Positions 12,835 to 32,268 of a stretch of DNA of 64,000 bases are shown here, piece after piece (the first letter of the stretch is position 1; every line of letters begins with the position of its first letter). The stretch spans positions 1,984,001 through 2,048,000 of the forward strand of contig OY970192.1 in assembly GCA_963708135.1 (NCBI GenBank). Direction: 5' to 3'. The notes below the pieces were generated by a model. The model was given only the letters and a program-made list of their open reading frames with translations, searched no databases and was not told the origin of the DNA. The stretch comes from an uncultured Gemmatimonadales bacterium (GTDB taxonomy: Bacteria; Gemmatimonadota; Gemmatimonadetes; Longimicrobiales; RSA9). Position numbers and translations under genes: made by a program.

Positions 12835-12837
12835 ATC

Positions 12838-14412: not shown

Positions 14413-14652
14413 CGGCCCGCGGACGCTGAAGGCGGTGGTGTCGGCCAACTGAGGCGGCCGGCGCGCTGGCGGGACTAAGGCCTGACTCCTGGCGCCGGTC
14501 GGCGGACGCGCACCGCTGCCTGGCCACCTGGCGCGGGGACGGGCGCGAGGCCAGGCGGCTGATCGCGCGCTCAGCCGTCTTCCCGCCCCGCGAGTGCTCC
14601 GTGCGGCGACGGCGTCACCGTCAGCACCAGAACGGTCGAGCTGGCCAGCCCG
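14413..14652 (+). repeat. Direct repeat copy 2 (about 240 bp)
   Basis: Partner of 13535-13774. Confidence 0.95.
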
Positions 14653-14698
14653 TGAGTTTGGGGTGAAAGCTGCACGGATGAGGCTCGCGACGCGGGCC

Positions 14699-14833
14699 TG
14701 CAGCCCTGACCGGAATAATCGTGGTCAGGGCTGCACGCATCAGCGCGTCCATCCAGCCGTGCTGTCCTGAGCCGAATCATTCTGGTCAGAGCGGCGGGCC
14801 CGAGCTGGGAAGCGCATGCGTGCAGCCCTGACC
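14699..14833. repeat. REP-like inverted repeat cluster
   Basis: TGCAGCCCTGACC (14699-14711) and GGTCAGGGCTGCA (14723-14735) form a perfect 13 bp stem; 14816-14833 is the 18 bp reverse complement of 14723-14740. Confidence 0.75.
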
Positions 14834-14935
14834 CCAACGCGGACAGGTCGAGCGCGCCACTCCGCCCGCGGCGCCACTGTGGGATCCGCGCGTGTCGCCC
14901 GTCCAGCGCATCACCGTCGCCGCGTGAGCGGCCGT

Positions 14936-15031
14936 TTGCCGCATCCGTCGGAGACCATCGGCCCCGGGCTATTGAACAAGATCCTGCGCGATACCGGGTT
15001 CTCTCGGGACCGGCTCATCAGCGTGTTGTGG
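14936..15031 (+). pseudogene. HicA-family toxin C-terminal remnant
   Basis: LPHPSETIGPGLLNKILRDTGFSRDRLISVL resembles HicA C-terminal helices; no intact N-terminus. Confidence 0.6.
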
Positions 15032-18000
15032 CTTCGCGGCCGCACGCCGCGGTGCGAGGAGGCAGTACAGCGCCGGCGTGACCGTGAGCACCAGCACGGT
15101 CGAGCTGGCCAGCCCGCCGATCAGCGCATAGCCCAGCGCGTTCCAGATGTTGGCATCGGCGTTGCCGCCCGACAGCACGAGGGGCAGCAGGCCGAAGATC
15201 GTCGTCGCCGTGGTCATGAGGATCGGCCGCGCGCGGTCGAGCGTGCCCTGCACCACCGCATCGCCCACGCGTACGCCGTCCTCGCGCACCAGGTGATTGA
15301 CGTGGTCCACGAGCAGGATCGCGTTGTTCACCACGATGCCTCCCATCATCACGACGCCCACCACCGCCTCGCGGGTGAAGCTCGCGCCGGTCAGGTAGAA
15401 GGTCAGGAAGACGCCGATGAGCGCCATCGGCACGGTCAGAAGCACCACGAACGGCTGGCGCAGCGACTCGAAGAGCGCGGCGGTCACCATGAAGACGAGC
15501 AGCAGCGAGACGAGCAGGACCCCGTACATCTGCCCCTGCTCCTGGTCGGACCACTGCCACGCCTGCCGGCCCGAGACGCTGTAGCCGGGCGGCAGGAGCG
15601 TGGTGGCGAGGACCGCGTCCTCGACCCGGTCGCCCAGCTTGGTCGGCCCCCGGAACTCGTAGCTCACGGTCCGCTCGTACTGCTGGTCCTCGCGCCGGAT
15701 GCTCGTCTGGATCGGCTGCTCATCGAGGGAGGCGACGTCCCCGAGGCGCACCGCCGGGCGGGGCGCACCCGCGCCGTCCGCGCCGCCCCCGCTGCCCGCC
15801 GCGCCGGCTCGGTCCGCCAGCCCGCCCGCGGCACCGCGGGTGGGTGGCTCCGCCGGCGCACGGTCGGTCGCACGCGGTCCGGAGGGGTTCGCCGCCTCTC
15901 GCCCGCCGACCGTGAGCAGCACGTCCATCAGGGTCTGCGTGTCCAGCGTCCGGGCACCGGCGCGCTTGACCGCGAGCCGGAGCTCGCGGCCGCCGACCTG
16001 AACGACGCCGCCGCCGGCGTCGCCTTCCGTGGCGGCGGCAACCTGCCGCACGACGTCGCGCGCCGTGAGCCCGTGCGTGGCGAGGCGGGGGCGGTCGAGC
16101 CGGAGCACCAGCTCGCTCGCGCGGTCGCTCTCGTACCACGCCCCGGCGGCGTTCGTGTCCACGTCGCCGATGCGCGTGAAGCGCTCGAGGCGCCGGCCCA
16201 GCGCCTCGGCGATCTCCCTGGTCTCGTCGAAGTTGTAGCCGCGCACCTGGATCGAGTACATCGGGGGGCTGCCGCCGCCGCCGTAGAAGGTCGGGCCGAA
16301 GCCGTAGACGTGCACCGTCGCGCCACCGAAGCGGTAGCTCTCGGCCACCAGCCGGTCCTTCAGCGCGAGCGGCACGGCCGTGTTCTCGAGCGAATCGGGG
16401 AACGTGACCCGGATGTCCGCGTAGCGGGCGCCGACGCGGGTGACGAACCGGGCGACCTGCGGCGCCCGCTCGAGCTCCGCCTCGAACCACCGTGCCAGCG
16501 CGTCCGTGTGCGCCAGCTCCTCGCCGCGCGGCATGAGGATCTGGATGTCGAGGTAGGTGCGCTCGCCTCCCCAGCTCCGCCACACCACGCCGCGCGTCAC
16601 GTCCTTCTGGAAGAGCCGGCCCGAGCCGGCGAGCAGCGCGAGCGCCAGCGTGATCGGTACCCAGGGCCTGCGCACCCCGAAACGAAGCGAGGCGACGTAG
16701 CCGCCGCGCAGCGCCCGGAGCGCTCGGCCACCGGCGCGGCGCAGAGCGCCGGGAGTGAGCGGGGCGGAGGCGTCGCCTGGCAAGGAATGCGAAGGGAGCG
16801 GGCCATCCCCGGGAACGCTTCCGGCCGGGCGCGGCTGCCCGAAGCGGCGCAGCAGCCGCGCGGCCATGGCGGGAATGAAGCTGAACGCCACCGCCGCGCT
16901 AGCCGCGAGGCTCAGCCCGACCACCGCGGCGAGGGGCACGTAGTAGGCGCGCAGGTCGCCCTGGAGATAGACGAAGGGGACGAGCACCACGACGGTCGTG
17001 AGCGTCGACGCCAGCACGGCCAGGACGACCTCCCGGCTGCCGCGCTCGGCGGCCGCCTCCGCCGCTTCGCCCAGCGATCTCCGCCGGTAGACGTTCTCGA
17101 GCACCACGATCGCGTTGTCGACCACCAGCCCGAAGCCCATGGCCAGCCCCATGAGCGTGAGCACGTTCAGGCTGAGGCCGCCGAGGTAGACCAGGTTGAG
17201 CGTGAGCAACGCCGAGAAGCCGATCGTCGCGAACGCGATTGCCGCCGACCGGAACGAGCGCAGGAAGGCGAGCAGCACCAGAAAGACCGCGAGCGCCGAA
17301 ACGAGGGCGCGCGTGCGCAGGTCGGTGAGCTGCGTGCGGATCGCCGCGCTCTCGTCCTGATCGAGGAGCAGCCGCGTGCCGGGCGGCAGCCCGCCGTGCG
17401 TCGCCGCGAGCCGTGCCTTCACGCGGTCCGCCACCGCGACCGCGTTGGTCCCCGGCTCGCGGTGTACCTCGAAGCTCACGGCCGGGAAGCCGTCGATCCG
17501 GTAATAGCTGTCCGCGTCCTCGTAGGTCTCGTGCACGCGGGCCAGGTCGCCGAGGCGGATCGCTACGCCGCCCCGCTCGACGAGCGGCGCGCGCAGCAGC
17601 GCCGGGACCGAGGCGACGCGGTCGCGCAACGTCACCGTGCGCACGCGGCCGCCCTCGTCCACCGCACCCGCCTCCCGCACCAGGTTGAGCCCGCGGACGC
17701 GGCGGGCGACCTCGTCCGGATCGAGCCCGAGCGCCTGCGCACGGCCCGGATCCAGCTCGATCTCGAGCAGGCGACGCCGGCCGCCGCGGACCTCGATCGC
17801 GCCGGCGCCCTCCACCTGCCTGAGCGCCGGCACGATCCTGTCCTCCGCATACGCGCGCAGCGCCTCCGGCGTGTACGGCCCCGTCACCGTGTAGACCAGG
17901 AACGGTTTGGCCTGCGCGCGCAGTGCCTCGGGGACGTACGGCTGGATGCGCGGCGGCGAGGCGCCCGCCGGCAGCTCGCGCGCGAGCGCCGCCAGCCGCT

Positions 18001-18334
18001 CGGAGAGCGCCAGGCGCGCGAACTTCATGTCCGTCCCGCGCGCGAACTGCACCTCGATCTGCGCCCGGCCGACGCCCGCCGGCGCGTCCGACACCGACGT
18101 GACCTTCGCCACGCCGCGCACCTCGTGGACGGCGGACTCGATCGGCGAGGTGACGAGCGCCTCCGTCGTGCGCGCGGAGGCGCCCGGCCAGAGGGCGGTC
18201 ACCGAAAGCTGCGGCAGCTCGGTATCCGGCAGCAGCTCGAGCGGGATGTTCCGCCACGCGGCGGCGCCGAGCACGCAGACGGCCAGGTAGGCCATCGCGA
18301 CCGTGACGGGGCGGCGGATCGAGAAGCGGATCAT
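14969..18334 (-). CDS. RND (AcrB/AcrD/AcrF family) efflux permease 2
   Basis: MIRFSIRRPV, GLVVDNAIVVLEN, GIVVNNAILLVD, RARPILMTT. Confidence 0.95.
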   Translation of the reverse strand: MIRFSIRRPVTVAMAYLAVCVLGAAAWRNIPLELLPDTELPQLSVTALWPGASARTTEALVTSPIESAVHEVRGVAKVTSVSDAPAGVGRAQIEVQFARGTDMKFARLALSERLAALARELPAGASPPRIQPYVPEALRAQAKPFLVYTVTGPYTPEALRAYAEDRIVPALRQVEGAGAIEVRGGRRRLLEIELDPGRAQALGLDPDEVARRVRGLNLVREAGAVDEGGRVRTVTLRDRVASVPALLRAPLVERGGVAIRLGDLARVHETYEDADSYYRIDGFPAVSFEVHREPGTNAVAVADRVKARLAATHGGLPPGTRLLLDQDESAAIRTQLTDLRTRALVSALAVFLVLLAFLRSFRSAAIAFATIGFSALLTLNLVYLGGLSLNVLTLMGLAMGFGLVVDNAIVVLENVYRRRSLGEAAEAAAERGSREVVLAVLASTLTTVVVLVPFVYLQGDLRAYYVPLAAVVGLSLAASAAVAFSFIPAMAARLLRRFGQPRPAGSVPGDGPLPSHSLPGDASAPLTPGALRRAGGRALRALRGGYVASLRFGVRRPWVPITLALALLAGSGRLFQKDVTRGVVWRSWGGERTYLDIQILMPRGEELAHTDALARWFEAELERAPQVARFVTRVGARYADIRVTFPDSLENTAVPLALKDRLVAESYRFGGATVHVYGFGPTFYGGGGSPPMYSIQVRGYNFDETREIAEALGRRLERFTRIGDVDTNAAGAWYESDRASELVLRLDRPRLATHGLTARDVVRQVAAATEGDAGGGVVQVGGRELRLAVKRAGARTLDTQTLMDVLLTVGGREAANPSGPRATDRAPAEPPTRGAAGGLADRAGAAGSGGGADGAGAPRPAVRLGDVASLDEQPIQTSIRREDQQYERTVSYEFRGPTKLGDRVEDAVLATTLLPPGYSVSGRQAWQWSDQEQGQMYGVLLVSLLLVFMVTAALFESLRQPFVVLLTVPMALIGVFLTFYLTGASFTREAVVGVVMMGGIVVNNAILLVDHVNHLVREDGVRVGDAVVQGTLDRARPILMTTATTIFGLLPLVLSGGNADANIWNALGYALIGGLASSTVLVLTVTPALYCLLAPRRAAAKPQHADEPVPREPGIAQDLVQ

Positions 18335-18416
18335 GGGGCCAAGTGAGCCCCGGCGTACAAAGGTGCTATGGGTGCCGTCGGCCACGGCATCGCGCGGAGC
18401 ACCGAGTGGGCGTCGA

Positions 18417-19679
18417 TTAGCGCGGCCATTCCAGGCGGTAACGGCTGATCCGCTCGACGTCGAGGCTGTCGAAGGTGACCGCCCAGAGCGTGTCTCCCCG
18501 GATCACGACAGGCTGTTCGGTCGGGTACCCCGAGTAGCGGACTCCCTTCGGGAGCGCGACGCGTCCGAGCCAGCGGCCGTCGTGGGCAAAGACGTCGAAG
18601 GCGCCCTTCGAGGCAAGGTCCCAGGTGTGCTTCACGCCCGTGCGCGCCGCGACCTGGGGAGGCACCGTCGAAAGCACGCTTGGCTGGTTCGGCCAGACCC
18701 AGACGCGCCCGTCACCGGGGAATATGATTCGCGCGTAGGCCGGCCGCTCCTCGGGGAGATCGACCGGCACCTGGATCACCTTCTGTTCCAGGAACCGACG
18801 CTCAGCGCTCGAGGCGTGCACGGGAGTCCAGGCTCGACTGATCCTCAGGACACCCGGTGCCCAGCCCGATACGTCGAAGCTGTAGGTCCGCGGGCAACCG
18901 ACTGCCACGGCTCCCCTGGGGCTCATCGCCCACGTGACCTTGGGGACATAGGGCGCCCGTTGGTCCGGGTAGAACCCGACGCGCGCTCCGATCGTGTCGA
19001 GGGTCGGGCAGCCTACCTGAAAACGCGACTCAGCCCAGACGGTGTCCTCCAGCGCGCCGCTGGAATCGATGCGCGCGTAGATCGGCCGTGGAAACGTGAC
19101 CCGCAGATCGTCGTCCAGCGGGGGGACGAGTCCGACCCAGAGGGAACCGTCGCCATGGAAGGCGATGGTGGTCTCGCTGTAGGACAGCGGCATGCCTGCC
19201 GGCCTTGCGAAGCTGGTCACCCGACCCTGAGGATGGAAGATCTTCACCCGACTGTTGCCCAGGTCGTAGGCCGCCACGGATCCGTCCCGGCCGACCGACA
19301 TCCCGACGACGCCGTACACCTCCGCCGGACCCTGACCCAGGCGGGCGACAAGGCCTCCGTAGGTCCCATCGGCCCGGAAGCGCTGGATTCCCTCTTTCGG
19401 CTGGTACGTGTACACATCGCCGTTCGGACCCACGGCGAACGCGAGCACCTTGTAGAGGCTCGTCTCCGGCTCCCCTTCCACGGAGCCGTAGCTCCGGACG
19501 AGCTCGAGGCGCACCGTGCCCTCCGCCGCGGGACGGAGGTTGTGCACGGTGAGCGTGTCGCCGGCCCGGCGTCGCTCCACGCCGGATGAATTCGACCGTT
19601 CCGTACTCGAGCACGCGCCCGGCAGGCCGGCGCACATGAGGAAGACAACCAGGCCGCGGCCGACCCTGCGGCCCTTCAC
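18417..19679 (-). CDS. Beta-propeller (NHL/6-bladed-like) lipoprotein A
   Basis: Signal peptide with PGA-C lipobox-like site; GQGPAEV, FDVF..DGRWLGRV.LP, C-terminal DSLDVERI.RYRL. Confidence 0.8.
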   Translation of the reverse strand: MKGRRVGRGLVVFLMCAGLPGACSSTERSNSSGVERRRAGDTLTVHNLRPAAEGTVRLELVRSYGSVEGEPETSLYKVLAFAVGPNGDVYTYQPKEGIQRFRADGTYGGLVARLGQGPAEVYGVVGMSVGRDGSVAAYDLGNSRVKIFHPQGRVTSFARPAGMPLSYSETTIAFHGDGSLWVGLVPPLDDDLRVTFPRPIYARIDSSGALEDTVWAESRFQVGCPTLDTIGARVGFYPDQRAPYVPKVTWAMSPRGAVAVGCPRTYSFDVSGWAPGVLRISRAWTPVHASSAERRFLEQKVIQVPVDLPEERPAYARIIFPGDGRVWVWPNQPSVLSTVPPQVAARTGVKHTWDLASKGAFDVFAHDGRWLGRVALPKGVRYSGYPTEQPVVIRGDTLWAVTFDSLDVERISRYRLEWPR

Positions 19680-19780
19680 GCCGGGTCCTCGGAGCTACGC
19701 TTCCTCCGCCCGCGCCGGCCGACGGCCCTCTCGCCCGCCGCCTCCGAGATTGCGCGGCCGTGTGACCACCCACCCGACGG

Positions 19781-19840
19781 GCACGCGGCCAGGTACACCA
19801 TCGGCGCGGCAACGGGGCGGCGGATCGACAAGCGGATCAT
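19781..19840 (-). pseudogene. Diverged copy of the RND2 5' end
   Basis: MIRLSIRRPVAAPMVYLAAC versus MIRFSIRRPVTVAMAYLAVC at 18275-18334. Confidence 0.85.
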
Positions 19841-19903
19841 GACTTCGAAGGAGTCTGGTCCGGCGCCCGCGACAGAAGCACAGTTTTCCACGGGGCCATC
19901 CCA

Positions 19904-21094
19904 CTACTGCTTCAGGATCCGGTATCCGACGACGGAGGGCACATCGAATTCGTCCTTGCTCACGCCCCAGAGCATCCCGGCGCCCGCCGCGTAGGGGACG
20001 AAGCCATGCGGCCCGTGGAGGGTAGCCATCGGCCGGCCGGTCCGCCCATCGAGGACCGTCAGGTCGTCGGTCCCGTAGGACGCGGCCGGCCGGGCAAGCC
20101 AGACGTCTCCGTTGGTGCCCACGAATACGCGATCGATCGGGGGCATGTACCTGGGGAGGTGGAGCGAGTCCCGGGCAAGGCGCATCGCCTCGTCCGACCT
20201 GGTACGCAGCAACAGGAATATCCGGGCCATGCGCTCTCGGACGCTGTCGGCGACGCGCTGGCCGATGGGCAGAGGCCGGTAATCGAGTGCTTCGTGGAAG
20301 ATCGTGTCCGCAGTGGGCCGGATACTCGTGACGTCGAATCGAGCAGCCCCTGCCGCCGTGGGTAGCCGCCGGGTTACCACCACGACCGCGCCGCCGCCCG
20401 GGGCGACCGCCACCACGTCGTCGCTTCGGAACGGATAAGGGAAGTTGATGATCGAATGACCGGTCCGGATGATGCCGTATGCGTGCTCGTTGCTCACCGA
20501 ACCGAGGCGGCCGATCTCGCCGCCCGCCGAATCCAGGAGCAGAAGCGGCAGGGCCGGTGACGAGCGCCTTCCCGTCGACGGGATCCCCAGGAAGCTTCCC
20601 CCGGCAAGCATTGCGGCGGGGGGCGTGGGCCGGGAAGAGAGCGGGAGCATCGGGCCGCGAACCGTAACATCTCGCAGCAACCGACCAGCGCTCGACCAGA
20701 GGGAAACGCGATACCTCGGCCGGTCTATAGTGACCAGCGTATCGCCGAGCCAACCGAGTGCGCGGAGCCCGCCGAATTCTCCCGGGCCGGCGCCACGACG
20801 GCCGAAGGAGCGCAGAAAACGGCCGCGCGCATCGAAGACCGCTACCGTCTGATCGAGGCGATCCGCCACGAACACGTCGCCCCGGCGCGAGACCGTGAGG
20901 TCGGCGATATCGCTCAGCACGAAGCTCGAGCCGCCATCGCCCGGGATTACGACGGCACGGTCGAGCCGCCATGTGGTGCCCTGGCCGTCAAGGGAGACTG
21001 CGGCAAAGGCTACGCCGATAGCAACCACAATCATCCCGACTGCGAGCCTCGCCGGCGCCTCCGCGAAAGGTCGGTACTTTATGGCTGTTGGCAC
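19904..21094 (-). CDS. Beta-propeller (NHL/6-bladed-like) secreted protein B
   Basis: GGAGG RBS before GTG; hydrophobic leader; VFDARGRFLRSFGRRGAGPGEF; C-terminal KDEFDVPSVVGYRI. Confidence 0.82.
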   Translation of the reverse strand: MPTAIKYRPFAEAPARLAVGMIVVAIGVAFAAVSLDGQGTTWRLDRAVVIPGDGGSSFVLSDIADLTVSRRGDVFVADRLDQTVAVFDARGRFLRSFGRRGAGPGEFGGLRALGWLGDTLVTIDRPRYRVSLWSSAGRLLRDVTVRGPMLPLSSRPTPPAAMLAGGSFLGIPSTGRRSSPALPLLLLDSAGGEIGRLGSVSNEHAYGIIRTGHSIINFPYPFRSDDVVAVAPGGGAVVVVTRRLPTAAGAARFDVTSIRPTADTIFHEALDYRPLPIGQRVADSVRERMARIFLLLRTRSDEAMRLARDSLHLPRYMPPIDRVFVGTNGDVWLARPAASYGTDDLTVLDGRTGRPMATLHGPHGFVPYAAGAGMLWGVSKDEFDVPSVVGYRILKQ

Positions 21095-21265
21095 TGATTG
21101 CCCTCCCGCCGCGTCACATTAGGTGGATCGCCTTGATCCGATCTGTGGCATTAGCAAATGCGGCACCACGACAGGAGCGCGGGCCGCGTGCGAGCCGGAG
21201 ATTACCTGGGAACCAGAACGGCCTCGACCGCGGGCGCGCCCAGAGGGCTTGGCCGCTCGAGTAAC

Positions 21266-21454
21266 GCGGCGGCGCGGCCAGGCCGCAGCCGCACGTCGAG
21301 GACGGCCGTGTTCAGCCCGCTCGTCTCGTCGCTGCCGGCCACGGCGGCCTGGCGGCGGATGCGGACGAGGACCGAGGCGACGTCGCCGTCGCGCCGCAGC
21401 GCCGCCTCGACCCGCGCGGCCTTCTCCGACGTCGCCTCCATGGTGGAGCCGCGG
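21266..21454 (-). repeat. Near-identical copy of an internal RND1 segment (27579-27767)
   Basis: Ungapped alignment at offset 6313, about 8 mismatches; reads [20 protein letters not shown]...[15 protein letters not shown]. Confidence 0.95.
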
Positions 21455-21735
21455 ATCTAGTGAATCCTTTGCGACCGCGAATGCGTGACCCATGGCTGCG
21501 GCCATCACCCGAGCACCGAGAGGCACCGCGACAATCGCCTTTACCCTGCCACTGCGGCCGATCACGTTCCAAAGGCTGCGGCCGCGCACAACCTGCTCGC
21601 GTTGCAGCCAGATGGCGCCGTCATTGGCCCCGAAGCCGGCCGTCACCGGAGGGAGATGCTTCGGCAGGAACAGCGCCTCTCGGACCCGTTTCTCAGCCGC
21701 GCCGCGCGCCGTAATGGCCGGCCCGCGTGCATGCA
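21455..21735 (-). pseudogene. C-terminal remnant of a B-like beta-propeller gene (C)
   Basis: VREALFLPKHLPPV...DGAIWL...VAKDSLD parallels ARDSLHLPRYMPPI...GDVWL...SKDEFD of protein B. Confidence 0.75.
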
Positions 21736-21737
21736 GT

Positions 21738-22265
21738 CTAACTCCCCCGCCGCGATCCCCGCGGATTGTTGAGTTCCACGTTGTGCATCTCATCGTCCGC
21801 ACTGAACCCGTCGCCGGTGAGCCACGTTCCGTTCTGCTGGATCCTCGTCTTAACCGTGCTCCCCACACAATGCGCGCTCGGACAAAAGTAGAGGTTTTCC
21901 GTCTCGATCCGGCGGTTCCCCTCCCGGGTGACGAGTACGACGCTGCCGCGTGCCAGCACGGTCTCCGTTCGCTCATTCAGGGTCCCGGACCGGGAAGTCA
22001 GAGCCGCGGTTTCTCGACCGTCGGCGCCGAAGATCGTGACGCGCACCCCCCAAAGCTCGTCCCGCGCCGAGTCTCTGAAAGCGTAGGCGCTGTCCGCGGT
22101 GAGCACGCCCCGCCGGATCCCGCCCGGTGTGATATTGTGCTGCACACCAAACATCACCCAGTCGGCCGCCGACCCGCGCTCTCGGGCAGCAGCTGTCGGT
22201 TCGTGCGCCACCCCGCTGCACGCTGGCGCGATCAGGATTAAGCTGATCCGCGCGAGTCTCTTCAT
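21738..22265 (-). CDS. LptC-like LPS export periplasmic protein
   Basis: APA-C leader; LTADSAY, LTSRSG, ARGSVV, IETENLY, GDGFSAD beta-jellyroll pattern. Confidence 0.72.
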   Translation of the reverse strand: MKRLARISLILIAPACSGVAHEPTAAARERGSAADWVMFGVQHNITPGGIRRGVLTADSAYAFRDSARDELWGVRVTIFGADGRETAALTSRSGTLNERTETVLARGSVVLVTREGNRRIETENLYFCPSAHCVGSTVKTRIQQNGTWLTGDGFSADDEMHNVELNNPRGSRRGS

Positions 22266-22320
22266 TCTCTGCCCTCTTCCGGGCTCCACGGGTTACGGAG
22301 CTACGGGAACTCAGGTACCA

Positions 22321-22925
22321 CCGTCATCCCAAGCCCTCTCGCCGGATCCGCTTGAGGTCCAGCCTGCCGGCGATGAGCGGTCACAGCATGTACTCGCGAA
22401 ATACGTCGGGCTCTCCAGCCGGTTACCCCGAGCCGGATCTCCTTCGATTGCGCTACGCCATGAAGCCGACAGCCGCGGCGGAATCGAGGCTGCACAGGGC
22501 CAGCCAGCGCTGGCGGCGCCTCGATGGGGCTCAACTTTCCCCCCTCGTCCGGGCGGGAGTGCGGTTCGTCAACGGCGTCAGCCAGCAGCGAGAAGAGCTG
22601 CGGACGCGGGCCGCCTGATCAACCCCAGATCCTACAACGTTTGAGAATACCTCCGGCGGCGGAGTCCATATCCGATTGATGCTCAGCATGCTTGGGCCCA
22701 GCCGGCTGTGTGGAACGTGTACTCTCACGGATAGCCGAGCGCACCCTTTGCCCCACCACCCCCGTTGACCTCAGGGATCAGGGGCGCCCATGTTGTCGCG
22801 CCGGTGAACTCGTTGCCGGCGGCCCGTTGAAAGTCCCGCCTGTGAGCAGTTCCGCTCCACACGCAGTCGTTGACTACGAATTCGTCGAACACCACCAGCC
22901 TCTGAATGGGTGGACTATAGCGCTC
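22321..22925 (-). pseudogene. Heavily decayed A-like beta-propeller gene (D), interrupted by an IS256 remnant
   Basis: 22323-22457 aligns at DNA level to 18425-18560; fragments WAPLIPEV, GYP*EYTFHTAGW, MLSINRIWTP match RAPYVPKV, GCPRTYSFDVSGW, VLRISRAWTP of protein A; stops and frameshifts. Confidence 0.72.
22490..22653 (+). mobile_element. IS256-family remnant (transposase C-terminus and right end)
   Basis: RASQRWRRLDGAQL..LVRAGVRFVNG...AA-stop followed by ..CAACGTTTGAGAATACCTC, resembling IS256 termini as I recall them. Confidence 0.7.
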
Positions 22926-22947
22926 AGGTGCCGCCGCGACGCGCCCG

Positions 22948-24423
22948 TCAGCGCCGCGGCAGTTCCCGTCCGGAACGCACAAAATCCGGTGACCTGGCTA
23001 TAGCCGTTCCCTCGACGCCCCCAGCCTTCGCGCGCGTGGAACAGGAACGCGTGGAGTTCGTGCACAATTCCCCTGCGGGACCTATAAGCCGTTCGCTGCC
23101 CTGAACATTCACTGACGCCCGACGAGCGTCGCTTCCGCAAACACACAGCACCCGCAGAATGTCCGTGTCCAACGAATCCCTGGCCTGCAAAATGACGAGG
23201 GTTGTAGACCCGGCCACGACCGTGCCGTCTGACGGGAGGCGCAGGCTCCCGAGAACTGCCCCGCTGGAGCGGAGTAGCAGCCAATCGGCGGACGCAGCCG
23301 AGGAGTGCGGCGTTTCCCGAACCCACACCGCGTGGTCCGAGGCCCCGATGATCGCATCGTAGCTAGGCAGAACATGGCTCGCCGGAGTGGCGTCCACCGC
23401 TCGCGCATAGGCCGCCCTGATCTTGACCCAGTCACCCGCCGAGAGCGCGCTACGCCATCGTTTCCACTTTTGCTCGGTCGACTGCTCCCGTCTCACGCGC
23501 TCGTGCTCGATATCCTCGTGGGTCGCAGGTTCGTGCCCTATCCTTACCGCCGTGGTTGGCAATTCCCTCCCCTGCATATCGAAGCGTCGCAGCTTCAGTG
23601 AATCACTCGTGCCAACCCACAGGGTCCGCCCCACCAACGCGGAATGCGTCCGCGGACCAAGGATCACGTCCTGGAAACTCCTGAAGCGGGGTTCGCTGTA
23701 CAGCCACGCTCGGGGATTCTGTTGCCGCGTCAGTACTCGGAGTGGGCGGGACCCGCCGTCAAAAAACGTGAACGTGGTCGTATCAATGACCGGCATCTCG
23801 CCCGGCCTGTCCTGAGCGCTGCCCCGGGAGCCTCGATCAGCAAAAACCACTGAACACCCGGAGACAAATCCGACCAACGTGGGCCGGAGCTGAGAGAATG
23901 CGGACAAAGAGGGATGCCACGTAGCAAGCACCGCACCTTGGCTAGAGAGGTGCGTAACTCTGACGAGCTGGACATCCCAGATACACAGGCCTCCAACTGG
24001 ATCGAAGCCGATCCTCCCAATGGCCTCCGTCATCCCGGGCCCGCTGCCGCGGCCCCCGAAACTGCGAAGGTACCTCCCGCCTAGCGTGAATAGCTCCACT
24101 CGCTGAGTGTACTCGTCAGCCACGGCGAGAAGGCTGTCGGCAAACATTGCGACGCCCCGGATCTTGCCGAAGGCTGCGGGACCTTCTGCCGCCGCCCCCC
24201 CGATCCTAGCTATCTCCCGGTATCGAAGCGCCGGGTATCCATCTGTCCGCATTTGGCCGTTGGCGGGATCCCCGCCTGCACACGCGCCTGCTGGCGCACC
24301 CAGAGCAACCCACAAGAGAACGAGGTAAGCCGAGCATCTGTGCCGGGTATCCGAGACTCTGGCGGCTCCAATGCGGCACGCGATCGGAAACTGACGCACC
24401 CTACCGCTGTTGCCGGCCCCCAA
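22948..24423 (-). CDS. Beta-propeller (NHL/6-bladed-like) lipoprotein E
   Basis: AGA-C lipobox-like site; GRYLRSFGGRGSGPGM, VWVRE, RDSLDTD; start uncertain and C-terminus may be read-through. Confidence 0.75.
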   Translation of the reverse strand: MGAGNSGRVRQFPIACRIGAARVSDTRHRCSAYLVLLWVALGAPAGACAGGDPANGQMRTDGYPALRYREIARIGGAAAEGPAAFGKIRGVAMFADSLLAVADEYTQRVELFTLGGRYLRSFGGRGSGPGMTEAIGRIGFDPVGGLCIWDVQLVRVTHLSSQGAVLATWHPSLSAFSQLRPTLVGFVSGCSVVFADRGSRGSAQDRPGEMPVIDTTTFTFFDGGSRPLRVLTRQQNPRAWLYSEPRFRSFQDVILGPRTHSALVGRTLWVGTSDSLKLRRFDMQGRELPTTAVRIGHEPATHEDIEHERVRREQSTEQKWKRWRSALSAGDWVKIRAAYARAVDATPASHVLPSYDAIIGASDHAVWVRETPHSSAASADWLLLRSSGAVLGSLRLPSDGTVVAGSTTLVILQARDSLDTDILRVLCVCGSDARRASVNVQGSERLIGPAGELCTNSTRSCSTRAKAGGVEGTAIARSPDFVRSGRELPRR

Positions 24424-24434
24424 ACATGACCTCC

Positions 24435-25095
24435 CAGTACTGTCCGGTTAAGCTGAGATGATGATGCCGTAACGGATTGCTACATGGTGCGTTACGACGT
24501 TTTGGTTGCCGCACCGATTTGAACTTCGCTCCTGCGCCGCTATCCTGCCCGGACCCCCCGGCCGGAGTAGCGCATGAATCCCGGAAGCACGGTTTTCTCA
24601 CAGGTGATGGCCCACGCATCTCGCTTCGCGCTCGATCGGTGCATCCGCCGCTACCACGGCAACCGGAGGGTCCGACGTTTCTCGTGTCGGGACCAGTTCC
24701 TCGCCATGGCCTTTGCCCAGCTCACCTACCGGGAGAGCCTGCGGGACCTCGAGGCCACCCTCGGGGCGGCCCCCGAGAAGCTGTACCATCTTGGCTTCCG
24801 TTCGCCGCTCTCTCGCAGCACGCTCGCCGATGCGAACGAGAATCGCGACTGGCGCATCTACGCCGATTTCGCTCAACGCCTGATCGCAGACGCGCGTCGG
24901 CTCTACGCCGACGACACGTTGGGGATCGAGCTCACGAACACCGTCTACGCGCTGGATTCCACCACGATCGACCTGTGTTTGTCGCTGTTCCCCTGGGCCT
25001 CGTTTCGTACGAGCAAAGGCGGCGTGAAGCTGCATACACTGCTCGACTTGGCAGGCAGGATCCCCGCCTACGCCTGGATCACGGACGCGAGCACC
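24435..25095 (+). mobile_element. Truncated IS4-family element (DUF4372-type transposase 24574 to about 25095)
   Basis: Left end CAGTACTGTCCGGTTAAG; VFSQ, FSCRDQFLAMAFAQLTYRESLRD, SRSTLADAN, ALDSTTIDL, VKLHTLLDL; homology stops after ITD. Confidence 0.9.
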
Positions 25096-25122
25096 AAGGG
25101 AGCCAAGCCGCAACTGCGAATC

Positions 25123-25138
25123 AGCAACGCCCATGCCC
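25123..25138 (-). promoter_or_regulatory. Sigma54 -24/-12 promoter
   Basis: Minus strand GGCATGGGCGTTGCT = GG-N10-GC with GGCA and TTGCT; about 230 bp downstream of a bEBP gene. Confidence 0.7.
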
Positions 25139-25227
25139 CGTTTCTCCAGTTAAGGGCGCATTTTGTAACCGATGCTACAGCAATGCGTTGGGCCGTCCGC
25201 TTCGCCTCGCAGGGGGCATCACCGGAC

Positions 25228-25347
25228 TGCAAGTCACGTTGCGGCGAACGGCGCTCGTCGGCGTGAGCATCTCTCGTAAGTCATTGCAGCGTAAGCGTCT
25301 GTCAGTGAGCGCAAAGACTAGCGAGAGGGTCCGCTAGAATCTTTGCA
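25228..25347. promoter_or_regulatory. Candidate enhancer (UAS) and IHF-like sites for the sigma54 promoter
   Basis: TGCAAGTCACGTTGCG (25228-25243); TAAGTCATTG (25277-25286); inverted pair GCAAAGACTAGCG and CGCTAGAATCTTTGC. Confidence 0.45.
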
Positions 25348-25365
25348 GCCCCAACAGTGCTGCAT

Positions 25366-26406
25366 CTACGGTGTGCGTCCGAATACCGATGCCTCAATCC
25401 CGAGTCTCTTCGCCCGTGCCTGCAAGGCCTGTCGCGACATGTTCAGCCTGCGTGCGGCCTCGGAGAAGTTCCAGCCGGCCGCTTGGAGGTGCTTCACGAG
25501 GAGCCGTTTCTCGAACTCTGCCATCAGGACCTTGTAACCGGCATGCCCGCCGCCGGGCCTGGCCGCGGCGGATCGCGGCCTGAGCGCCCTTTCCATATCG
25601 GCAGCCCCGATCTCGACGTGCTCGTCATCGCAGTGGAGAGAGGCACGCGCTAGCACATTCTGCAACTCGCGGACGTTCCCGGCCCACGGGTGCGCGAGGA
25701 GGAGCGCTATGGCGCCCGGTGTCGGGTGGAGCACCGGAATCGAGTACCGTTCGGCCTGACGCTCAAGAAACTCTTCCACGAGCAACGGGATATCGTCTGT
25801 TCGCTCCCGGAGCGGCGGCAGGTGAACCGCGATCACATCGAGGCGGTACCACAGATCGTCCCGGAACCGACCCGCCTCGACTTCCGCCGCAAGTGGCGTG
25901 TTGGTCGCGCAGACAACCCGCACGTTGACCGTTCGCGGCCGGACGCGTCCGAGCGGCACGACCTGCCCGGTCTCCAACACGCGCAGGAGCTGCCCCTGGA
26001 CCTCAAGCGGGAGTGAATTGATCTCGTCCAGGAACAGCGTGCCGCCATCCGCCTCCACGAATGCTCCCGGCGTATCGCGGTCGGCGCCGGTGAACGCACC
26101 CTTGACGTGGCCGAACAGGCGGCTCGCGGCCAGGTCGCGAAGGCCGGCGCCGTTCAGGCACACCAGCGGCCCCTTCCGCTTCCAGGCCGCGTGGAGTCCG
26201 CGGGCCGCCAGCTCCTTCCCCGTCCCGGTTTCCCCCACGAGGAGGACGGGCTCCGCCCTGCGACTCGCGAGCGCGAGCATCCGGCGTGCCTGCCGCATTG
26301 CCTCGCTGCCGCCCAGCAGCGCGGCGAACGGATCACCGTCCGGAGCTGAACGAACCTGCCCGAACGGCTGTGTTCGCCGGCTCTCCGGCACCTGCATGCT
26401 GGACAT
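25366..26406 (-). CDS. Sigma54-dependent transcriptional activator (bEBP) without a sensory domain
   Basis: [28 protein letters not shown], Fis-type HTH; AGGAGG RBS; only about 25 aa before the AAA+ domain. Confidence 0.93.
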
Positions 26407-29400
26407 ACTCCTCCTGGGCTTTGGGCGCCCGAGCGGATTCCACCACCTCGTACACGACCGGCACCACGATCAGCGTCAACGTCGTGGACGTCACCAGCCC
26501 CCCAAACAGCGCGATGGCGAGCGGCGCCTGCAGCCCCGCGCCGGCGCCGATCCCGAGCGCCATGGGCAGCACCCCCAGCATTGTCGTCACGGAGGTGAGC
26601 ACGATGGGCCGCAGCCGCGCGCGGCCGGCGGCGTGGATCGCCTCGCGGAGTGGCATCCCCTCGCGGCGCAGGCGGTTGATGAAGTCGATCTTCACGACGG
26701 CGTCGTTCTCGGCGATGCCGGCGAGCACGACGAGGCCGATGAGGGAGACGCTGTTGAGGCCGGCGCCGCTGATCCAAAGCGTCAGGAATGCGCCGACGAG
26801 GGCGAGCGGCACGCTGAGCAGCATGATGACGGGTTGGAGGAAGCTCTCGAACTCGGCGGCGAGGATCATGTAGACGAGGAGCATGGCGACGGCGAAGGCG
26901 AACGCCAGACCGCGGAAGGCGCGGCGCATCTCCTCGTTCGCGCCGCCGACCTCGACCTGGACGCCGGCCGGCGGGTCCAGGCCGGTGAGCGCCTGGCGGA
27001 TCTCGCGCACCGCGTGATCGAGGCCGCCGCGCGCCACGTCCGCGAGCACGGGGACGACCTGCGCCTGGTTGGCGCGGCGCACCTCCGCGGGGCCGAGGCG
27101 GGTCCGGCTTCGGACCAGCTCCCGGAGCGGAACGCCGGCGACGCGCAGCAGCCCGAGCGCCTCCGCGGAGCGCCGGTCGGCGGCCGGCAGCCGGACCAGG
27201 ACGGGCACCTTGCGGTCGAAGTCGACGAGCCGGGTGGCGACCCTCCCGCGCGTGTAGTCCGCCACCGCGTCGGCGACGCGGCTCGGCTCGATGCCGTATG
27301 CGGCGGCGGCCTCGCGGTCGACGCCGATCTCGATCTCGGGCTGCCCCAGCTCCGTGCCGAGGCGCACGTTGGTGACGTCGCCGAGATGCGCGAGGCGGTC
27401 CTCGACACGGCGCGCATACGCCAGCGAGCCGTCCAGGTCCTCGCCCCGGACGCGGACGGCGATGTCCGCATTGCCGGCGCCGAGCAGCATGCCGAGCGAC
27501 GTCGCCTGACCCTGCTCGACGTCCACCTCGCCGGGCGGCAGTCCGCGCAGCCGCGCGCGCAGGCGGCGCACGACGGGAGCGGTGGCGCGGCCAGGCCGCA
27601 GCCGCACGTCGAGGACGGCCGTGTTCAGCCCGCTCGTCTCGTCGCTGCCGGCCACGGCGGCCTGGCGGCCGATGCGGGCGAGGACCGAGGCGACGTCGCC
27701 GTCGCGCCGCAGCGCCGCCTCGACCCGCGCGGCCTCCTCCGACGTCGCCTCGAGCGTCGAGCCGCGGGGCCGCTCGATGCGCACGCGGAAGGCGCCCTGG
27801 TCCACGCGCGGGAGCACGCTGCGTGGCAGCGCGAACCCGGCGAGGGCGCCCAGGCCGAGCAGCAGCGCGGCCGCGGCGAGGGTGCGGGCCCGCCGCCGGA
27901 GCGCGGCATCGAGAACGCGCTCGTAGGCGGCGGCGAAGCGGGCGTAGCCGCGGTCCACGGCGGCGAAGACGAGCGCCCGCGAGCCATCGCCCGCGGCCGC
28001 CCAGCGCGCCGCGAGCGCGGGCACCACCGTGAACGCCACCAGCACGCTGGCGAGCAGCGAGAAGGCCACGGAAAGCGAGAGCGCGCCGAACAGCCTGCCG
28101 GCCACGCCCTGGACGTAGATGATCGGCCCGAACACCGCCACCGTCGTGAGGGTGGAGGCGAGCACGGCGCGCTGGACCTCATCCGCGCCGAGCACGGCCG
28201 CCACGCCGGCCGGCCGCCCGGATTCGCGATGGCGCACGACGTTCTCGACCACGACGATCGCGTTGTCGACGAGCATGCCGATGCCGAGGGCGAGGCCGCC
28301 CAGCGTCATGAGGTTGAGCGTGGCGCCGGCGGCGTCCAGGAGCGAGAAGGCGGCGAGGACGGAAAGCGGGATGGCCGTGGCGATGGCGAGGGGGTAGCGG
28401 ACGTCGCCGAGGAAGAGGAAGAGCACGAGGAAGGCGAGCAGCCCGCCGAAGACGACCTGCTGCTCGACCGTGCCGATGGCGGCGCGGATGAAGCCGGCCT
28501 GACTGCTGGCCACGGCCAGCCGGACGCGCGGGTACTCGCGGCGGAGCTGGGCGAGCACCGCGTCCACGCGCGCCGCCACGCGCGCCGTGTTGGCGCCCGA
28601 TTCCTTGAAGACGAGCAGCGCGACGGCCTCCCGGCCGTCGTAGCGCACGATGGACTCCCGCTCCCTGAAGCCGTCCTCGACGGAAGCGACGTCTCCCACC
28701 GTGAGCGCGCCGCCCGCGCTGTCGTCTCCGGGCAGCGCCACCGCGCGGATCTCGCCGGCGCCGGCAAGCTCGCCCGAGGTGCGCAGCGGGTAGCGGAAGC
28801 GGCCGCGCAGGATCGTGCCGCCCGGCGCGCTGGCGTTCGCCGCGTCAATGGCGGCGGAGACGTCGCCGATGGAAAGGCCGTGACTCTCGAGCGCCGCGGG
28901 GTCGACGGCCACGTGGACCTCGCGCTCGAGCCCGCCGGTCACCGCCGCCTGCGCCACGCCATCGATCTGCTCGAGGCGACGCTTCACGACCGAGCGCGCC
29001 AGCGCCTCGAGCGCCGCCAGGTCGCCGCCGCCGCCGGCCACGGTCACGGCGAGGATCGGCTCGCTACGCGGGTCGGTGCGAAGCACGGCGGGCCGGTCCG
29101 CGCGCTCGGGAAGGCCGCCGGCCAGGTTGTCGAGCTTCTCGCGCACGCCGAGGACGGCGAAGTCCATGTCCGTGCCCCAGGAGAAGCGGAGCGTCACGAG
29201 CGAGATGCCCTCGCGGCTCGAGCTCTCGACGTGGAGCACGCCCGGCACGGTGGAGACGGCCTGCTCGATGGGCTCGGTGACGAAGCGGGCCACCTCCGCC
29301 GGCGCCACGTCGGGGTACGCGGTCGAGACCACGAGCTGCGGGTAGGCGATGTCCGGCAGCAGGTCGATGGGCAGCCGGCCAAGCGAGATCGCGCCGACCA

Positions 29401-29467
29401 TGGCCACGGCCAGGAAGAACATGGCCACGGCCACGGGCCGTCGGGCGGAGACGGAGGGAAGCGACAC
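26333..29467 (-). CDS. RND (AcrB/AcrD/AcrF family) efflux permease 1
   Basis: [39 protein letters not shown]. Confidence 0.95.
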
Positions 29468-29474
29468 GGCGCCC

Positions 29475-30845
29475 TCAGGGCTCCGGCACCACGGGTCCGC
29501 CGACGGCCTCCTCGAGCGCGGCCACGGCGAGAGCCCAGCCGTAGCGGGCCTCCACGGCCTGTCGCTCGGCCGCGGCGGCGCGGTCGATCAGCGTCTGCAG
29601 CTCGGTGAACGAGAGGGCGCCGAGCTCGTACTTGCGCTGCGCCAGCCCGATCCGCTCGCGGCTGAGCGAGTCGGCCTGCTCCGCCAGCGTCACGGCGCCA
29701 CGCGCGACGCGCAGGTCCACCAGCGCGGAGCGCACGCCCGCCTCGACGGCGAAGCGCTCCGCGCGCAGATCCTGCTCGGCCGCCGTGCGCGCCACATCCG
29801 CGGCCGCCACCGCCGCGGAGGTGCGCAGGTTGTCGAAGAGGGGGAGCGATGCCGAGAGCCCGAAGTAGAGGGTGCGATTCTGCGGGTTCAGCTCGCCGAG
29901 CGCGCCATAGTTGGTGAGGCTCATCGAGCGGCCGAGCCCGGCGTTGAGGCTGAGCCGGGGCCAGCGCCCGCCACGGGCGCCGGCCGCCCGGGCCGACGCG
30001 GCGCGCGCGTCCGCCCGCGCAGCCGCGAGCGCCGGGTGCGCCGAGAGCGCACGGGCCAGGAGTCGGTCGGCCGGGAGCGAATCGGCATCGAAGTCGGCCG
30101 GGAAGTCGTCCGTGAGCACGTAGGCGACGCTGCCGGGCTCCTCCCCCATCGCCTGTGCCAGCGCCAGGTCCGCCTTCTCGACCTCGCCCTCCGCGCGCGC
30201 GACGGCTTGTTGCTGCGCCGCCACATCCACGCGTGCGCCCAGCACGTCGGCCGGATCGGTGCGCGCCACGCGCAGCATGGCCTCCGTTCCGGCCAGCCGC
30301 TCGCGCGCGGAGGCGAGGAGCCGCCGCTCGAGCTCGACGACCCGGCGCGCACGCACGGCCTGGTAGTAGCGGCCGGCGACCTCGGCGCGCAGGCGCAGCG
30401 CCTCGCTCGCGGCGGTCGCGTTGGCCGCGTCCGCATCGGCGCGCGCCGCCCGCAAGGCGCTCACGTTGGCCAGGCCATCGAAGAGGTCGAGGGAAGCGGA
30501 GAGCGACTGGCTCGTGCTGCTGTTGCGGAAGTCCTCCGGCGTGTCCAGCCGGCGCGGGCGGCCGAAGTCGTCCTCGCCCGTGACCGCGCGCGAATCGTTA
30601 CCCGACATGTTGATTCCGGCGGAGAGCGACGGCAGAAATGCCGCCCACGCGCGCCGGGTCCCGGCGCTCGCCGCATCCACCGCCGCCACCGTTTTCCGGT
30701 AGGCGGGCGCCCGATCGAGCGCCCCGCGCACGGCATCGGGGAGGGAGAGACGGAGGGTGTCGGAGGCGGAAGGCCGCTGCGCGCCGGCGGCGCGCGGCGG
30801 GAGCGTCGCCAGAAGGGTCAGGGCGAGAAGGAACGGGCGGCGCAT
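29475..30845 (-). CDS. TolC-family outer membrane efflux protein
   Basis: Signal peptide, LSLPDAV, PSLS and PRLSL, LPLFD, YELG. Confidence 0.92.
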   Translation of the reverse strand: MRRPFLLALTLLATLPPRAAGAQRPSASDTLRLSLPDAVRGALDRAPAYRKTVAAVDAASAGTRRAWAAFLPSLSAGINMSGNDSRAVTGEDDFGRPRRLDTPEDFRNSSTSQSLSASLDLFDGLANVSALRAARADADAANATAASEALRLRAEVAGRYYQAVRARRVVELERRLLASARERLAGTEAMLRVARTDPADVLGARVDVAAQQQAVARAEGEVEKADLALAQAMGEEPGSVAYVLTDDFPADFDADSLPADRLLARALSAHPALAAARADARAASARAAGARGGRWPRLSLNAGLGRSMSLTNYGALGELNPQNRTLYFGLSASLPLFDNLRTSAAVAAADVARTAAEQDLRAERFAVEAGVRSALVDLRVARGAVTLAEQADSLSRERIGLAQRKYELGALSFTELQTLIDRAAAAERQAVEARYGWALAVAALEEAVGGPVVPEP

Positions 30846-30852
30846 GGGGCCG

Positions 30853-32052
30853 CTACTCCGGCCGGCCGCCGGCGGCCGCGGCGTGCGCCACCAGCCGCAC
30901 GCGCGCGTCGTGGACGAGGGTGTACTGCCCGCCGGTCAGCACGATCTCGCCCGGGCGGACGCTGTCCGTCTCCGGGTTCGGCACGATCTCGACGAGGGAA
31001 TCGTTGGTCAGGCCGGTGGTGACGTAGCGCCACTTGGCGAGCCCGGAGGAGGGACCGTCCGGCGCGTAGACGAAGAGCATCGTGCGCCGGTCGCGCTCGA
31101 GGATGGCCGAGCGCGGCACGAGCACGCGGCCGGGCAGGCGGCGCGCCTCGAGCGAGACCCGGGCGTACATCCCCGGCAGGATGCGGCCGCGCGGGTTCGC
31201 CACCTCGACCGTGACCGTGGCCGCGCGGCTCCGCCGATCCACCTCGGGGTTGATCGCCGCGATCCGCCCCGCGACCGGGGCGCCGGGAAACGCCGAGAAG
31301 GCGACGCTCGCGCGGCCGCCGGGACGCAGGCGGGCGAGATCCCCCTCGAGCACCTGGACCTCGACCCGGATCGGATCCACGTCGAGCACCGTGAGCAGCG
31401 GATCCCCCGGCCGGACCCACTGCCCCGGCGTCACCTTCACGTCCGCCACCCGGCCCGCGAACGGCGCCGTCACGCGCGTCTCCGCCAGCCGGTAGGCCGC
31501 CCGCCGCACCGCCACCTCCGCCGCGTCCAGGCCACTTCTGGCCCGCGCCGCCTCCGCCCGCTCGGCCCGCACCCGCGCGTCGTCGATCCGGTCGTCGAAG
31601 AGCGTCAGCTCGCGGTAGCTGGCCTGCGCCTGCCGCAGCTGCGCCGCCGCCGCGTCCCGGTCCAAAACGTATTCCGTCGAGTCCAGCGTGACGAGCGCGC
31701 GCCCGGCCGCCACGCTCGCGTCCTCCCCCGCCGAGACGGCCAGCACCCGCCCCGCGACGCGCGCCAGGAGGACCGCCGAGCGCGCCGGCGCGGCCTCCGC
31801 CGCCGCGGACACCGACAGGACCAGCGTCCCCCGCTCCGCCGGCACGCCCTCCACCGGGATGGCGAGACCGCTGCCCGCCGACTCGCGGCCCGCGTCATCG
31901 CCCGGCGAGACCATGGACGCCGCCGCGGCGTCCAGGTCATCCCCGCCCGCATCCGCCGCGGCCGAGTGCCGATGGAGGACGAGGAACCCGAGGAGAACGA
32001 GTCCGATGATCGCGCCGGCCGCGAGGACCGGGCGCGTGCGTAGCGATGCCAT
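30853..32052 (-). CDS. RND periplasmic adaptor (MFP)
   Basis: N-terminal TM, VAGRV, APFAGRV, INPEVD, LPGMYARV, VPRSAI. Confidence 0.93.
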   Translation of the reverse strand: MASLRTRPVLAAGAIIGLVLLGFLVLHRHSAAADAGGDDLDAAAASMVSPGDDAGRESAGSGLAIPVEGVPAERGTLVLSVSAAAEAAPARSAVLLARVAGRVLAVSAGEDASVAAGRALVTLDSTEYVLDRDAAAAQLRQAQASYRELTLFDDRIDDARVRAERAEAARARSGLDAAEVAVRRAAYRLAETRVTAPFAGRVADVKVTPGQWVRPGDPLLTVLDVDPIRVEVQVLEGDLARLRPGGRASVAFSAFPGAPVAGRIAAINPEVDRRSRAATVTVEVANPRGRILPGMYARVSLEARRLPGRVLVPRSAILERDRRTMLFVYAPDGPSSGLAKWRYVTTGLTNDSLVEIVPNPETDSVRPGEIVLTGGQYTLVHDARVRLVAHAAAAGGRPE

Positions 32053-32162
32053 GGCGGGTGCCGGGAAGGGCCGTCAGCGGCCACGGAGCTGGCGCACCGG
32101 AACCTGTGAGGGGGGGGCAGGCGGCACGCGGGTCATCCCCACGTTGTCCGTGGCGGTCCGTC

Positions 32163-32186
32163 AAGTCAATAGTAGTAACTTGACTT
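32163..32186. promoter_or_regulatory. AT-rich inverted repeat, candidate operator of the efflux operon
   Basis: AAGTCAA-N10-TTGACTT overlapping minus-strand TTGACT/TTGACG hexamers, about 110 bp upstream of the MFP gene. Confidence 0.6.
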
Positions 32187-32268
32187 AGACCATCCTCCCC
32201 CGCGGAAGACGCTCAAAGTCCGTGCAGGAGAAGAAACGAAGAGCGGAGGCCATGGCTGCGACAGTCCC

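Follow-up and report, generated by a model that had tools for sequence, protein, structure and literature searches.

Genes for predicted beta-propeller lipoproteins as exchangeable cassettes in an MdtABC-like RND efflux operon

Among efflux systems of the resistance–nodulation–division (RND) superfamily, MdtABC-TolC and MuxABC-OpmB are encoded by operons in which two tandem permease genes share a single adaptor gene. The permeases MdtB and MdtC assemble into a heterotrimer, and the MuxABC-OpmB operon also includes the gene of the outer-membrane factor (OMF). To our knowledge, a few small proteins aside, no component beyond permease, adaptor and outer-membrane channel is known to be required by an RND pump. 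The nearest functional analogy for an accessory periplasmic protein encoded in such an operon is CusF of the copper/silver pump CusCFBA, which hands substrate to its pump. Here, we analyzed a 64,000-nucleotide window (the whole stretch of DNA, G000:C1:1984001–2048000) from an uncultured Gemmatimonadales bacterium, G000, whose complete genome measures 5.45 Mb with 72% GC. The window holds a tripartite RND efflux operon of the MdtABC/MuxABC-OpmB kind. The OMF gene lies within the operon, as it does for MuxABC-OpmB. Unlike in either described system, the gene order is membrane fusion protein (MFP, the adaptor)–OMF–RND1–RND2, and genes for propeller lipoproteins stand between or after the permease genes. 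CusF, for its part, is a small beta-barrel metallochaperone of another RND class and is encoded by a single conserved gene, whereas the proteins considered here are a cassette family of 400-residue propellers. Our main finding is that these propeller genes are built into the operon as exchangeable cassettes across a bacterial class.

Genes were called from Pfam and NCBIfam profile matches on the open reading frames (ORFs) of the window; positions below are window positions unless prefixed with C1. The MFP, OMF, RND1 and RND2 genes, together with genes for a sigma54 activator and an LptC-like protein, all lie on the minus strand, as a preliminary description of this DNA had listed them. The adaptor is a HlyD-type protein of 399 residues (30853–32052; PF16576 HlyD_D23, about 1e-29, and HlyD_3). 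It is followed by an OEP/TolC-like OMF of 456 residues (29475–30845; PF02321 OEP in two stretches, 7e-52) and by RND1, a permease of 1044 residues that matches the whole ACR_tran profile (26333–29467; PF00873, 2e-240). The RND2 frame (14969–18385; PF00873, 5e-169) opens at a GTG at 18385; the true start is likely the ATG at 18334, where the orthologue start MIRFSIRRP matches. The two permeases are 30–35% identical. Full ACR_tran permeases, a HlyD-type adaptor and an OEP factor on one strand together make up a tripartite HAE-1-like RND pump.

We then compared this locus with 40 genomes of the order, referred to below as relatives. RND2 orthologues occur in 34 of the 40, and 31 of these genomes were examined, three unpublished ones being left out. 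In all 31, the context MFP–(OMF)–RND1–RND2 holds as far as the contigs reach, and the distance from RND1 to RND2 is below 200 bp at 24 of 29 informative loci. Since the permeases abut in most relatives, the large insert between them is specific to G000. MFP orthologues form the operon head in relatives at 42–64% identity; RND1 orthologues are 50–62% identical, and RND2 orthologues 44–59% over their full length. Of the solved chains, Escherichia coli MdtB (9lyq_B, 3e-86) is the nearest to the RND2 orthologue. Against the NCBIfam models for MdtB/MuxB (NF007798) and MdtC (NF007905), RND1 scored 401 and 402 bits and RND2 scored 298 and 320 bits, with cut-offs of 1584 and 1774. Scores this far under the equivalog cut-offs mean that the permeases are not orthologues of the E. 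coli genes. The pair had been described at the outset as MdtBC-like; this stands, and the tandem is conserved across the order.

Propellers recur at the operon. Across 37 loci (503 kb), we found 16 propeller ORFs, which belong to 12 of the 31 relatives. As controls, we inspected 17 loci (299 kb) that surround paralogous RND genes in 17 of the relatives examined; they contained none. No P value is attached to the linked-versus-control counts because related genomes are not independent. The copies take three positions. Propellers stand between the permeases in G024, G032, G038 (two copies) and G040; directly after RND2 in G004, G024, G034 and G038, and convergently in G036; and before the MFP gene in G010, G012, G014, G017, G023 and G034. 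These ‘between’, ‘after’ and ‘before’ copies separate into three clades of the family tree, supported at 94–100. The fit between the permeases can be tight: in G032, the propeller starts 2 nt past the RND1 stop and ends 22 nt ahead of the RND2 start. Moreover, genomes with few family copies retain the operon-linked ones (four of five in G000, two of four in G024, one of three in G040).

We extended the search to a sample of 201 genomes of the class, with the ‘between’ propeller of G032 as query. Five of its nine best matches sit between RND1 and RND2: the query itself and the copies of G024, G181, G142 and G172. The last three genomes fall under other family codes, and in each of them a propeller follows RND2 as well, so the arrangement RND1–propeller–RND2(–propeller) is found under four family codes of the class. 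In G172, whole propeller arrays are present on both sides. The preliminary description had named the absence of a recurrent association between propellers and the operon as the outcome that would undo it; the 12 relatives and the three genomes of other families display just such an association.

Propeller content changes quickly. Within a single genus, G034, G032 and G038 have 0, 1 and 2 cassettes between the permeases, respectively, although their RND2 proteins share 97–97.5% identity. Indel boundaries among the three coincide with gene borders: what G034 lacks is exactly the between-propeller gene of G032, with a 16-nt spacer left. Across a 33-row RND2 tree, the ‘between’ state requires at least seven changes. 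A fixed and slowly evolving propeller content, the other outcome considered beforehand, is thus not what the genus shows. We also estimated the ratio of nonsynonymous to synonymous substitution rates (dN/dS; Nei–Gojobori). It was 0.26 for the between propeller (G032 versus G038) and 0.25 for the after propeller (G038 versus G034), compared with 0.06–0.13 for RND1 and RND2. Relative to the flanking permease genes, dN of the propellers was 7–14 times and dS 2–3 times higher. A dN/dS of ∼0.26 combined with high dN indicates that the propellers are working genes that change fast under purifying selection. The raised dS hints at exchange of whole alleles.

In G000, three full-length, highly divergent NHL-type six-bladed propeller ORFs (D, B and A) and a C-terminal remnant (C) lie between the permeases, all on the minus strand. 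We scored them with an independent family hidden Markov model (HMM), built from 57 family members of other genomes and none of G000; A, B and D each cover it almost completely. Propeller D (491 residues; 22948–24423) scored 150 bits over positions 6–403 of 409. It has a lipobox-like signal and an additional C-terminal tail of ∼55 residues, and scored 119 bits against an HMM of the ‘between-permease’ clade. Propeller B (396 residues; 19904–21094) gave 234 bits. Propeller A (420 residues; 18417–19679) gave 156 bits over positions 12–408 of 409; it too carries a lipobox-like signal, and its stop is 82 nt ahead of the RND2 ATG. Remnant C consists of the last ∼85 residues of a propeller (about 21449–21703). 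It matched positions 291–376 of a 386-position HMM with 56 bits and the independent HMM with 39.9 bits, and is up to 43% identical to clade members that group with B.

Pairwise identity among A, B and D is 21–25%, in keeping with the initial remark that the propellers share only short motifs. In the family tree, D attaches by a very long branch to the base of the ‘between’ clade, B clusters with copies from G036, and A falls loosely near the ‘after’ clade, on a long branch and with at most 27% identity to any copy compared. Recent local duplication was rejected as the source of A, B and D, given their different tree parts and low identity. The whole 5.45-Mb genome contains these four family copies and one distant NHL ORF 160 kb off; because there are no more than these, their clustering is not due to chance. 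The distant ORF (C1:1843471–1844463) is ∼1.5 kb from a truncated copy (C1:1845906–1846452) of the IS4-family element that also left a fragment in the insert. Five propeller entities had been named in the preliminary description, of which four were recovered (D here is E there). The fifth, a ‘decayed D’, was not: neither two HMMs with filters off nor tblastn with the 57 family members detected a propeller in 22290–22948 or 24424–25366. These stretches hold a 170-bp repeat and a 665-bp IS4-family fragment instead.

The fold of the family was assessed from an AlphaFold2 model of propeller B (predicted local distance difference test score, pLDDT, 83; predicted template modelling score, pTM, 0.81). 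The model has a helix at residues 15–37 and then a beta-propeller into which a helical segment is inserted at 279–310. Foldseek matched it best to NHL domains (probability 1.00), in support of a six-bladed fold. The top structural matches were the eukaryotic TRIM-NHL domains of Brat, TRIM2 and TRIM71 (E 3e-12; target-normalised template modelling score at most 0.70), which are six-bladed NHL propellers serving as binding platforms. These differ from the present family in being cytoplasmic binders of RNA or protein, with 12–16% sequence identity and no shared context. Foldseek also returned BF0058, an exported protein of Bacteroides fragilis (PDB 4raa, E 4e-9), which we consider together with the six-bladed propeller family PF17170 (DUF5128). 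Like it, the proteins here are predicted to be exported, and B exceeds the Pfam cut-off for PF17170 (28.9 bits; cut-off 22.9). D stays below that cut-off (12.6 bits, E 0.079) and A has no match, and the family has a C-terminal D-x-L-D-V motif and a helical insert of its own. Among members of the between clade, 14 of 20 match PF17170 at E ≤ 0.001. The cysteine of an AAC-like lipobox is invariant in all 20. This residue, the similar signals in A and D and the membrane helix in B together predict exported, membrane-tethered proteins. Family clusters are commonest in Gemmatimonadota. In the literature searched, we found no mention of DUF5128 and, by title or abstract, no propeller partner of RND pumps.

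Physical contact between propeller and pump was modelled for G032. We predicted the complex of its propeller with the two periplasmic loops of its RND2 as three chains, each with its own alignment; the model is truncated, comprising neither the trimer nor the membrane part nor the adaptor. The score was 0.62, against 0.01 for the best of three controls. The score mark used is reached by 116 of 157 solved complexes and by 2 of 215 mismatched pairs, and is only a rough guide for a three-chain job with separate alignments. Contact agreement between runs was at least 59%, and partner pLDDT was at least 84. Predicted contacts lie at RND2 residues 617–689 and 816–824 in the second periplasmic loop, a region that we take, by AcrB numbering, to be the PC1/PC2 substrate-entry side. 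On the propeller, they map to a single face, to which the GPGEF and C-terminal D-x-L-D-V motifs belong. The model supports binding of the G032 propeller to the RND2 loops, short of showing it.

Together, these data suggest how the cassettes might act. The propellers would be dispensable, periplasmic, membrane-tethered partners of the pump that bind the permease at its second periplasmic loop. Once bound, they may present or select substrates, or gate their entry, and they would be swapped, lost and replaced as whole-gene cassettes. We put a functional, and probably physical, partnership of the propellers with the MdtABC-like pump at about an even chance. Binding to the pump is inferred from a single prediction, and any role in substrate choice is likewise inferred. 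In the fullest version of this reading, the propellers would form a hitherto undescribed class of periplasmic lipoprotein adaptors that can be exchanged; one would dock at the substrate-entry side and decide or gate entry, while the paralogues would act as a cassette reservoir for changeable pump specificity. This version is tentative and, on balance, unlikely. The idea of exchangeable substrate adaptors was already raised in the preliminary description. Its cassette exchange is borne out, and one propeller–RND2 prediction passes its controls; on the other hand, the propellers are not specific to this locus and occur in many unrelated contexts.

Several observations weigh against a tie to the pump. 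Since RND1 and RND2 adjoin each other in 24 of 29 informative relatives, and the fetched stretch is free of propellers in 19 of 31, the pump can do without them. Unrelated genes occupy the slot too; G040 has one for an AraC-type regulator there, and G012 one for a nucleotidyltransferase. In relatives, the family is very large: counts per genome reach 413 for first-look candidates and 46 for the matches scored among them, and 20 unlinked copies have unrelated neighbours. Even the ‘between’ clade includes tandem arrays that lie more than 10 kb from any RND gene. At the predicted interface, propeller residues are 16–29% identical among ‘between’ orthologues versus 34–35% for the rest of the protein. 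The RND2 side is no better conserved in operons with a propeller than in those without (0.61 versus 0.67); this surface may therefore serve another partner, for instance the adaptor or a neighbouring protomer. Finally, the end branches of A, B and D in the family tree (2.4, 1.3 and 3.4, against a median of 0.6) could reflect relaxed constraint, or else fast adaptive change.

Most of these points would follow if the propellers merely hitch-hiked, that is, if a large, fast-spreading family of envelope paralogues, which numbers dozens of members or more in a relative's genome, had no functional tie to the pump and the RND1–RND2 junction were an inherited permissive hot spot. In line with this, an insertion recA–[propeller]–alaS is present in both G004 (L076) and G020 (L077), a second recurrent insertion site, among housekeeping genes. 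Yet a spreading family does not readily account for 16 propellers at the operon loci and none at the 17 control RND loci. Nor does it account for the same arrangement under four family codes with propellers only ∼35% identical, for the 2- and 22-nt spacers of G032, or for the retention of linked copies in few-copy genomes. The dN/dS of 0.26 and a complex prediction that passes its controls likewise speak against it. We consider hitch-hiking rather unlikely. The size that the family can reach is illustrated by G027, where seven paralogues lie on one strand within 11 kb (L067, C1:2288500–2308400) in a genome with 413 first-look candidates.

A second alternative is that the propeller is a co-expressed periplasmic enzyme, which modifies or degrades the exported compound as some beta-propeller lactonases and lyases do, and is co-regulated with the pump without being bound to it. 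The membership of the propeller in the operon, seen in the spacing in G032, fits such an enzyme as well. Lower-ranking Foldseek matches include peptidyl-alpha-hydroxyglycine lyase (3fvz), virginiamycin B lyase (2z2o) and Drp35 (2dg0), and one of the 20 clade members touches PF08450 (SGL) at 5e-4. However, the family-invariant columns are mostly Gly, Pro, Phe and Trp, plus one Asp of the NHL repeat, and look structural, with no metal-binding or acid–base set evident. The top fold matches are NHL domains of the binding type, and the extreme divergence of the paralogues suits binding surfaces better than a fixed active site. An enzymatic role is accordingly improbable.

The insert of G000 also encodes a sigma54 enhancer-binding protein of 346 residues that has AAA+ and helix-turn-helix parts only (25366–26406, minus strand; PF00158, 4e-53; HTH_8). 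The C-terminal ∼30 residues of RND1 are unconserved and overlap the start of this ORF. Its translation has the GAFTGA loop, and G000 has rpoN at C1:1495049. The protein is without an N-terminal sensor domain: homologues in the 40 relatives align from query residue ∼26, and their open frames are mostly 440–560 residues long (range about 350–1650). No orthologue above 49% identity was found in the 40 relatives, and none at the operon loci of the 31. Consensus –24/–12 sites with at most two mismatches numbered 15 where 16 were expected, which is chance level; one –24/–12-like site (21153–21168, minus strand) is 59 nt ahead of the B start. In relatives, activator genes were near the operon only in G017 and G039, and one was near a control locus too. 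Since each genome has 14–51 candidate activator genes, this is about what chance would give. As for a peptide gene, the canonical junctions (2 and 22 nt in G032) leave no room for one, and none was seen in the insert.

The preliminary description proposed a sigma54-controlled system that exports a secreted peptide or product, the propellers being receptors or conferring immunity. This proposal can point to the intact GAFTGA loop, the presence of rpoN and the site ahead of B, but it is very improbable given a sensor-less activator that is specific to G000 and abuts a fragment of an insertion sequence (IS), activators and promoter-like sites at chance frequency, and junctions too short for a peptide gene. 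Among the relatives, only in G039 does the operon adjoin a complete two-component sigma54 system: genes for a GAF histidine kinase and for a sigma54 activator with a receiver domain lie just upstream of its adaptor gene (L036, 7202–11337).

We next turn to the make-up of the insert, which spans 7,947 bp between the RND1 and RND2 ORFs. Its GC content is 0.62–0.69 versus 0.73–0.78 in the flanks, and GC at third codon positions is 0.70–0.84 versus 0.91–0.95, confirming that it is more AT-rich, as first noted. Two parts of it come from mobile or repeated DNA. At 24431–25095 (plus strand) lies a 665-bp 5′ fragment of a multicopy IS4-family element, 99.4–100% identical to six other copies in G000; one further copy is shorter, and the match of the window fragment ends at 25095. 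An ORF at 24574–25266 matches DUF4372 (9e-28) and the IS4 transposase model NF033592 at 94.9 bits, under the 115-bit cut-off. In a public metagenome run, word depth over 24157–25107 was 56–60 against 3–8 in the flanks, ∼10-fold higher, as expected for a multicopy element. At 22490–22657, a 170-bp repeat is 76–77% identical to three other loci of G000. It abuts or overlaps the end of a 452-residue ORF at two of these and lies between ORFs of 209 and 396 residues at the third. Judged by this placement, it is probably the end of a second IS.

Other parts derive from chromosomal genes. A second, diverged LptC paralogue of 183 residues (21738–22289, minus strand; TIGR04409, 61.3 bits, cut-off 38; PF06835, 30.7 bits) has taken the place of the front part of propeller C. 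It is 57% identical in protein sequence to the canonical lptC at C1:1490525–1490995, which is ∼4 kb from rpoN. LptC-like genes are not recurrent propeller partners in the fetched loci, none of which gave a tblastn match. Adjoining remnant C is a copied 216-bp internal piece of RND1 (residues 563–634; 21253–21468, minus strand), with 95.8% nucleotide identity over 189 bp to 27579–27767 and 85% protein identity over 72 residues. Beginning 63 nt past the B stop is a relic of the front end of RND2 that retains the start codon and ∼20 codons (19772–19840, minus strand). It has 84% nucleotide identity over 56 bp to 18280–18335 and 65% protein identity to RND2 residues 18–40, and reads MIRLSIRRPV where RND2 has MIRFSIRRPV. 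This relic implies that B formerly stood directly ahead of RND2, in the tight position now held by A. Contigs of the metagenome run, which may be the source sample, span several of the inner junctions with 0 mismatches. Several events of illegitimate recombination and insertion have enlarged the slot to 7.9 kb; it has become a decaying 8-kb mosaic in G000.

Some further features of the operon and its surroundings were recorded. RND2 of G000 has a 47-residue insertion in the second periplasmic loop, after the position of residue 777–780 of the G032 orthologue, and ∼22 additional residues preceding that loop. Both are confined to G000, being present in none of the 12 aligned orthologues (the alignment has 13 rows, with nine orthologues left out). 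At the G012 locus (L010, C1:1600000–1619900), RND1, RND2 and OEP match piecewise in different frames, and a nucleotidyltransferase-like ORF occupies a 1.5-kb gap separating the permeases; either the operon is broken, or the assembly has indel errors there. In the window, minus-strand trpF/trpC-like genes (PRAI and IGPS domains; 11144–12972) lie downstream of the operon and a trpD-like gene (Glycos_transf_3; 32269–33753, minus strand) upstream, so the efflux operon sits between trp genes. Also among these are, on the plus strand, a LexA-like repressor (12838–13449) and an antitoxin-like ORF (13716–14057). TrpD was not found adjoining the operon in the loci of relatives. An Rfam scan of 14000–33000 gave a single sub-threshold small-RNA match, inside RND2, which we disregarded.

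If the partnership of propellers and pump is real, it would add a new kind of pump accessory: a 400-residue propeller lipoprotein that is positionally conserved across families and yet replaced cassette-wise between close relatives. It would offer soil bacteria a possible route to retune efflux specificity. It would also provide a first functional handle on the very large DUF5128-like family, represented dozens of times or more in a genome of this class.

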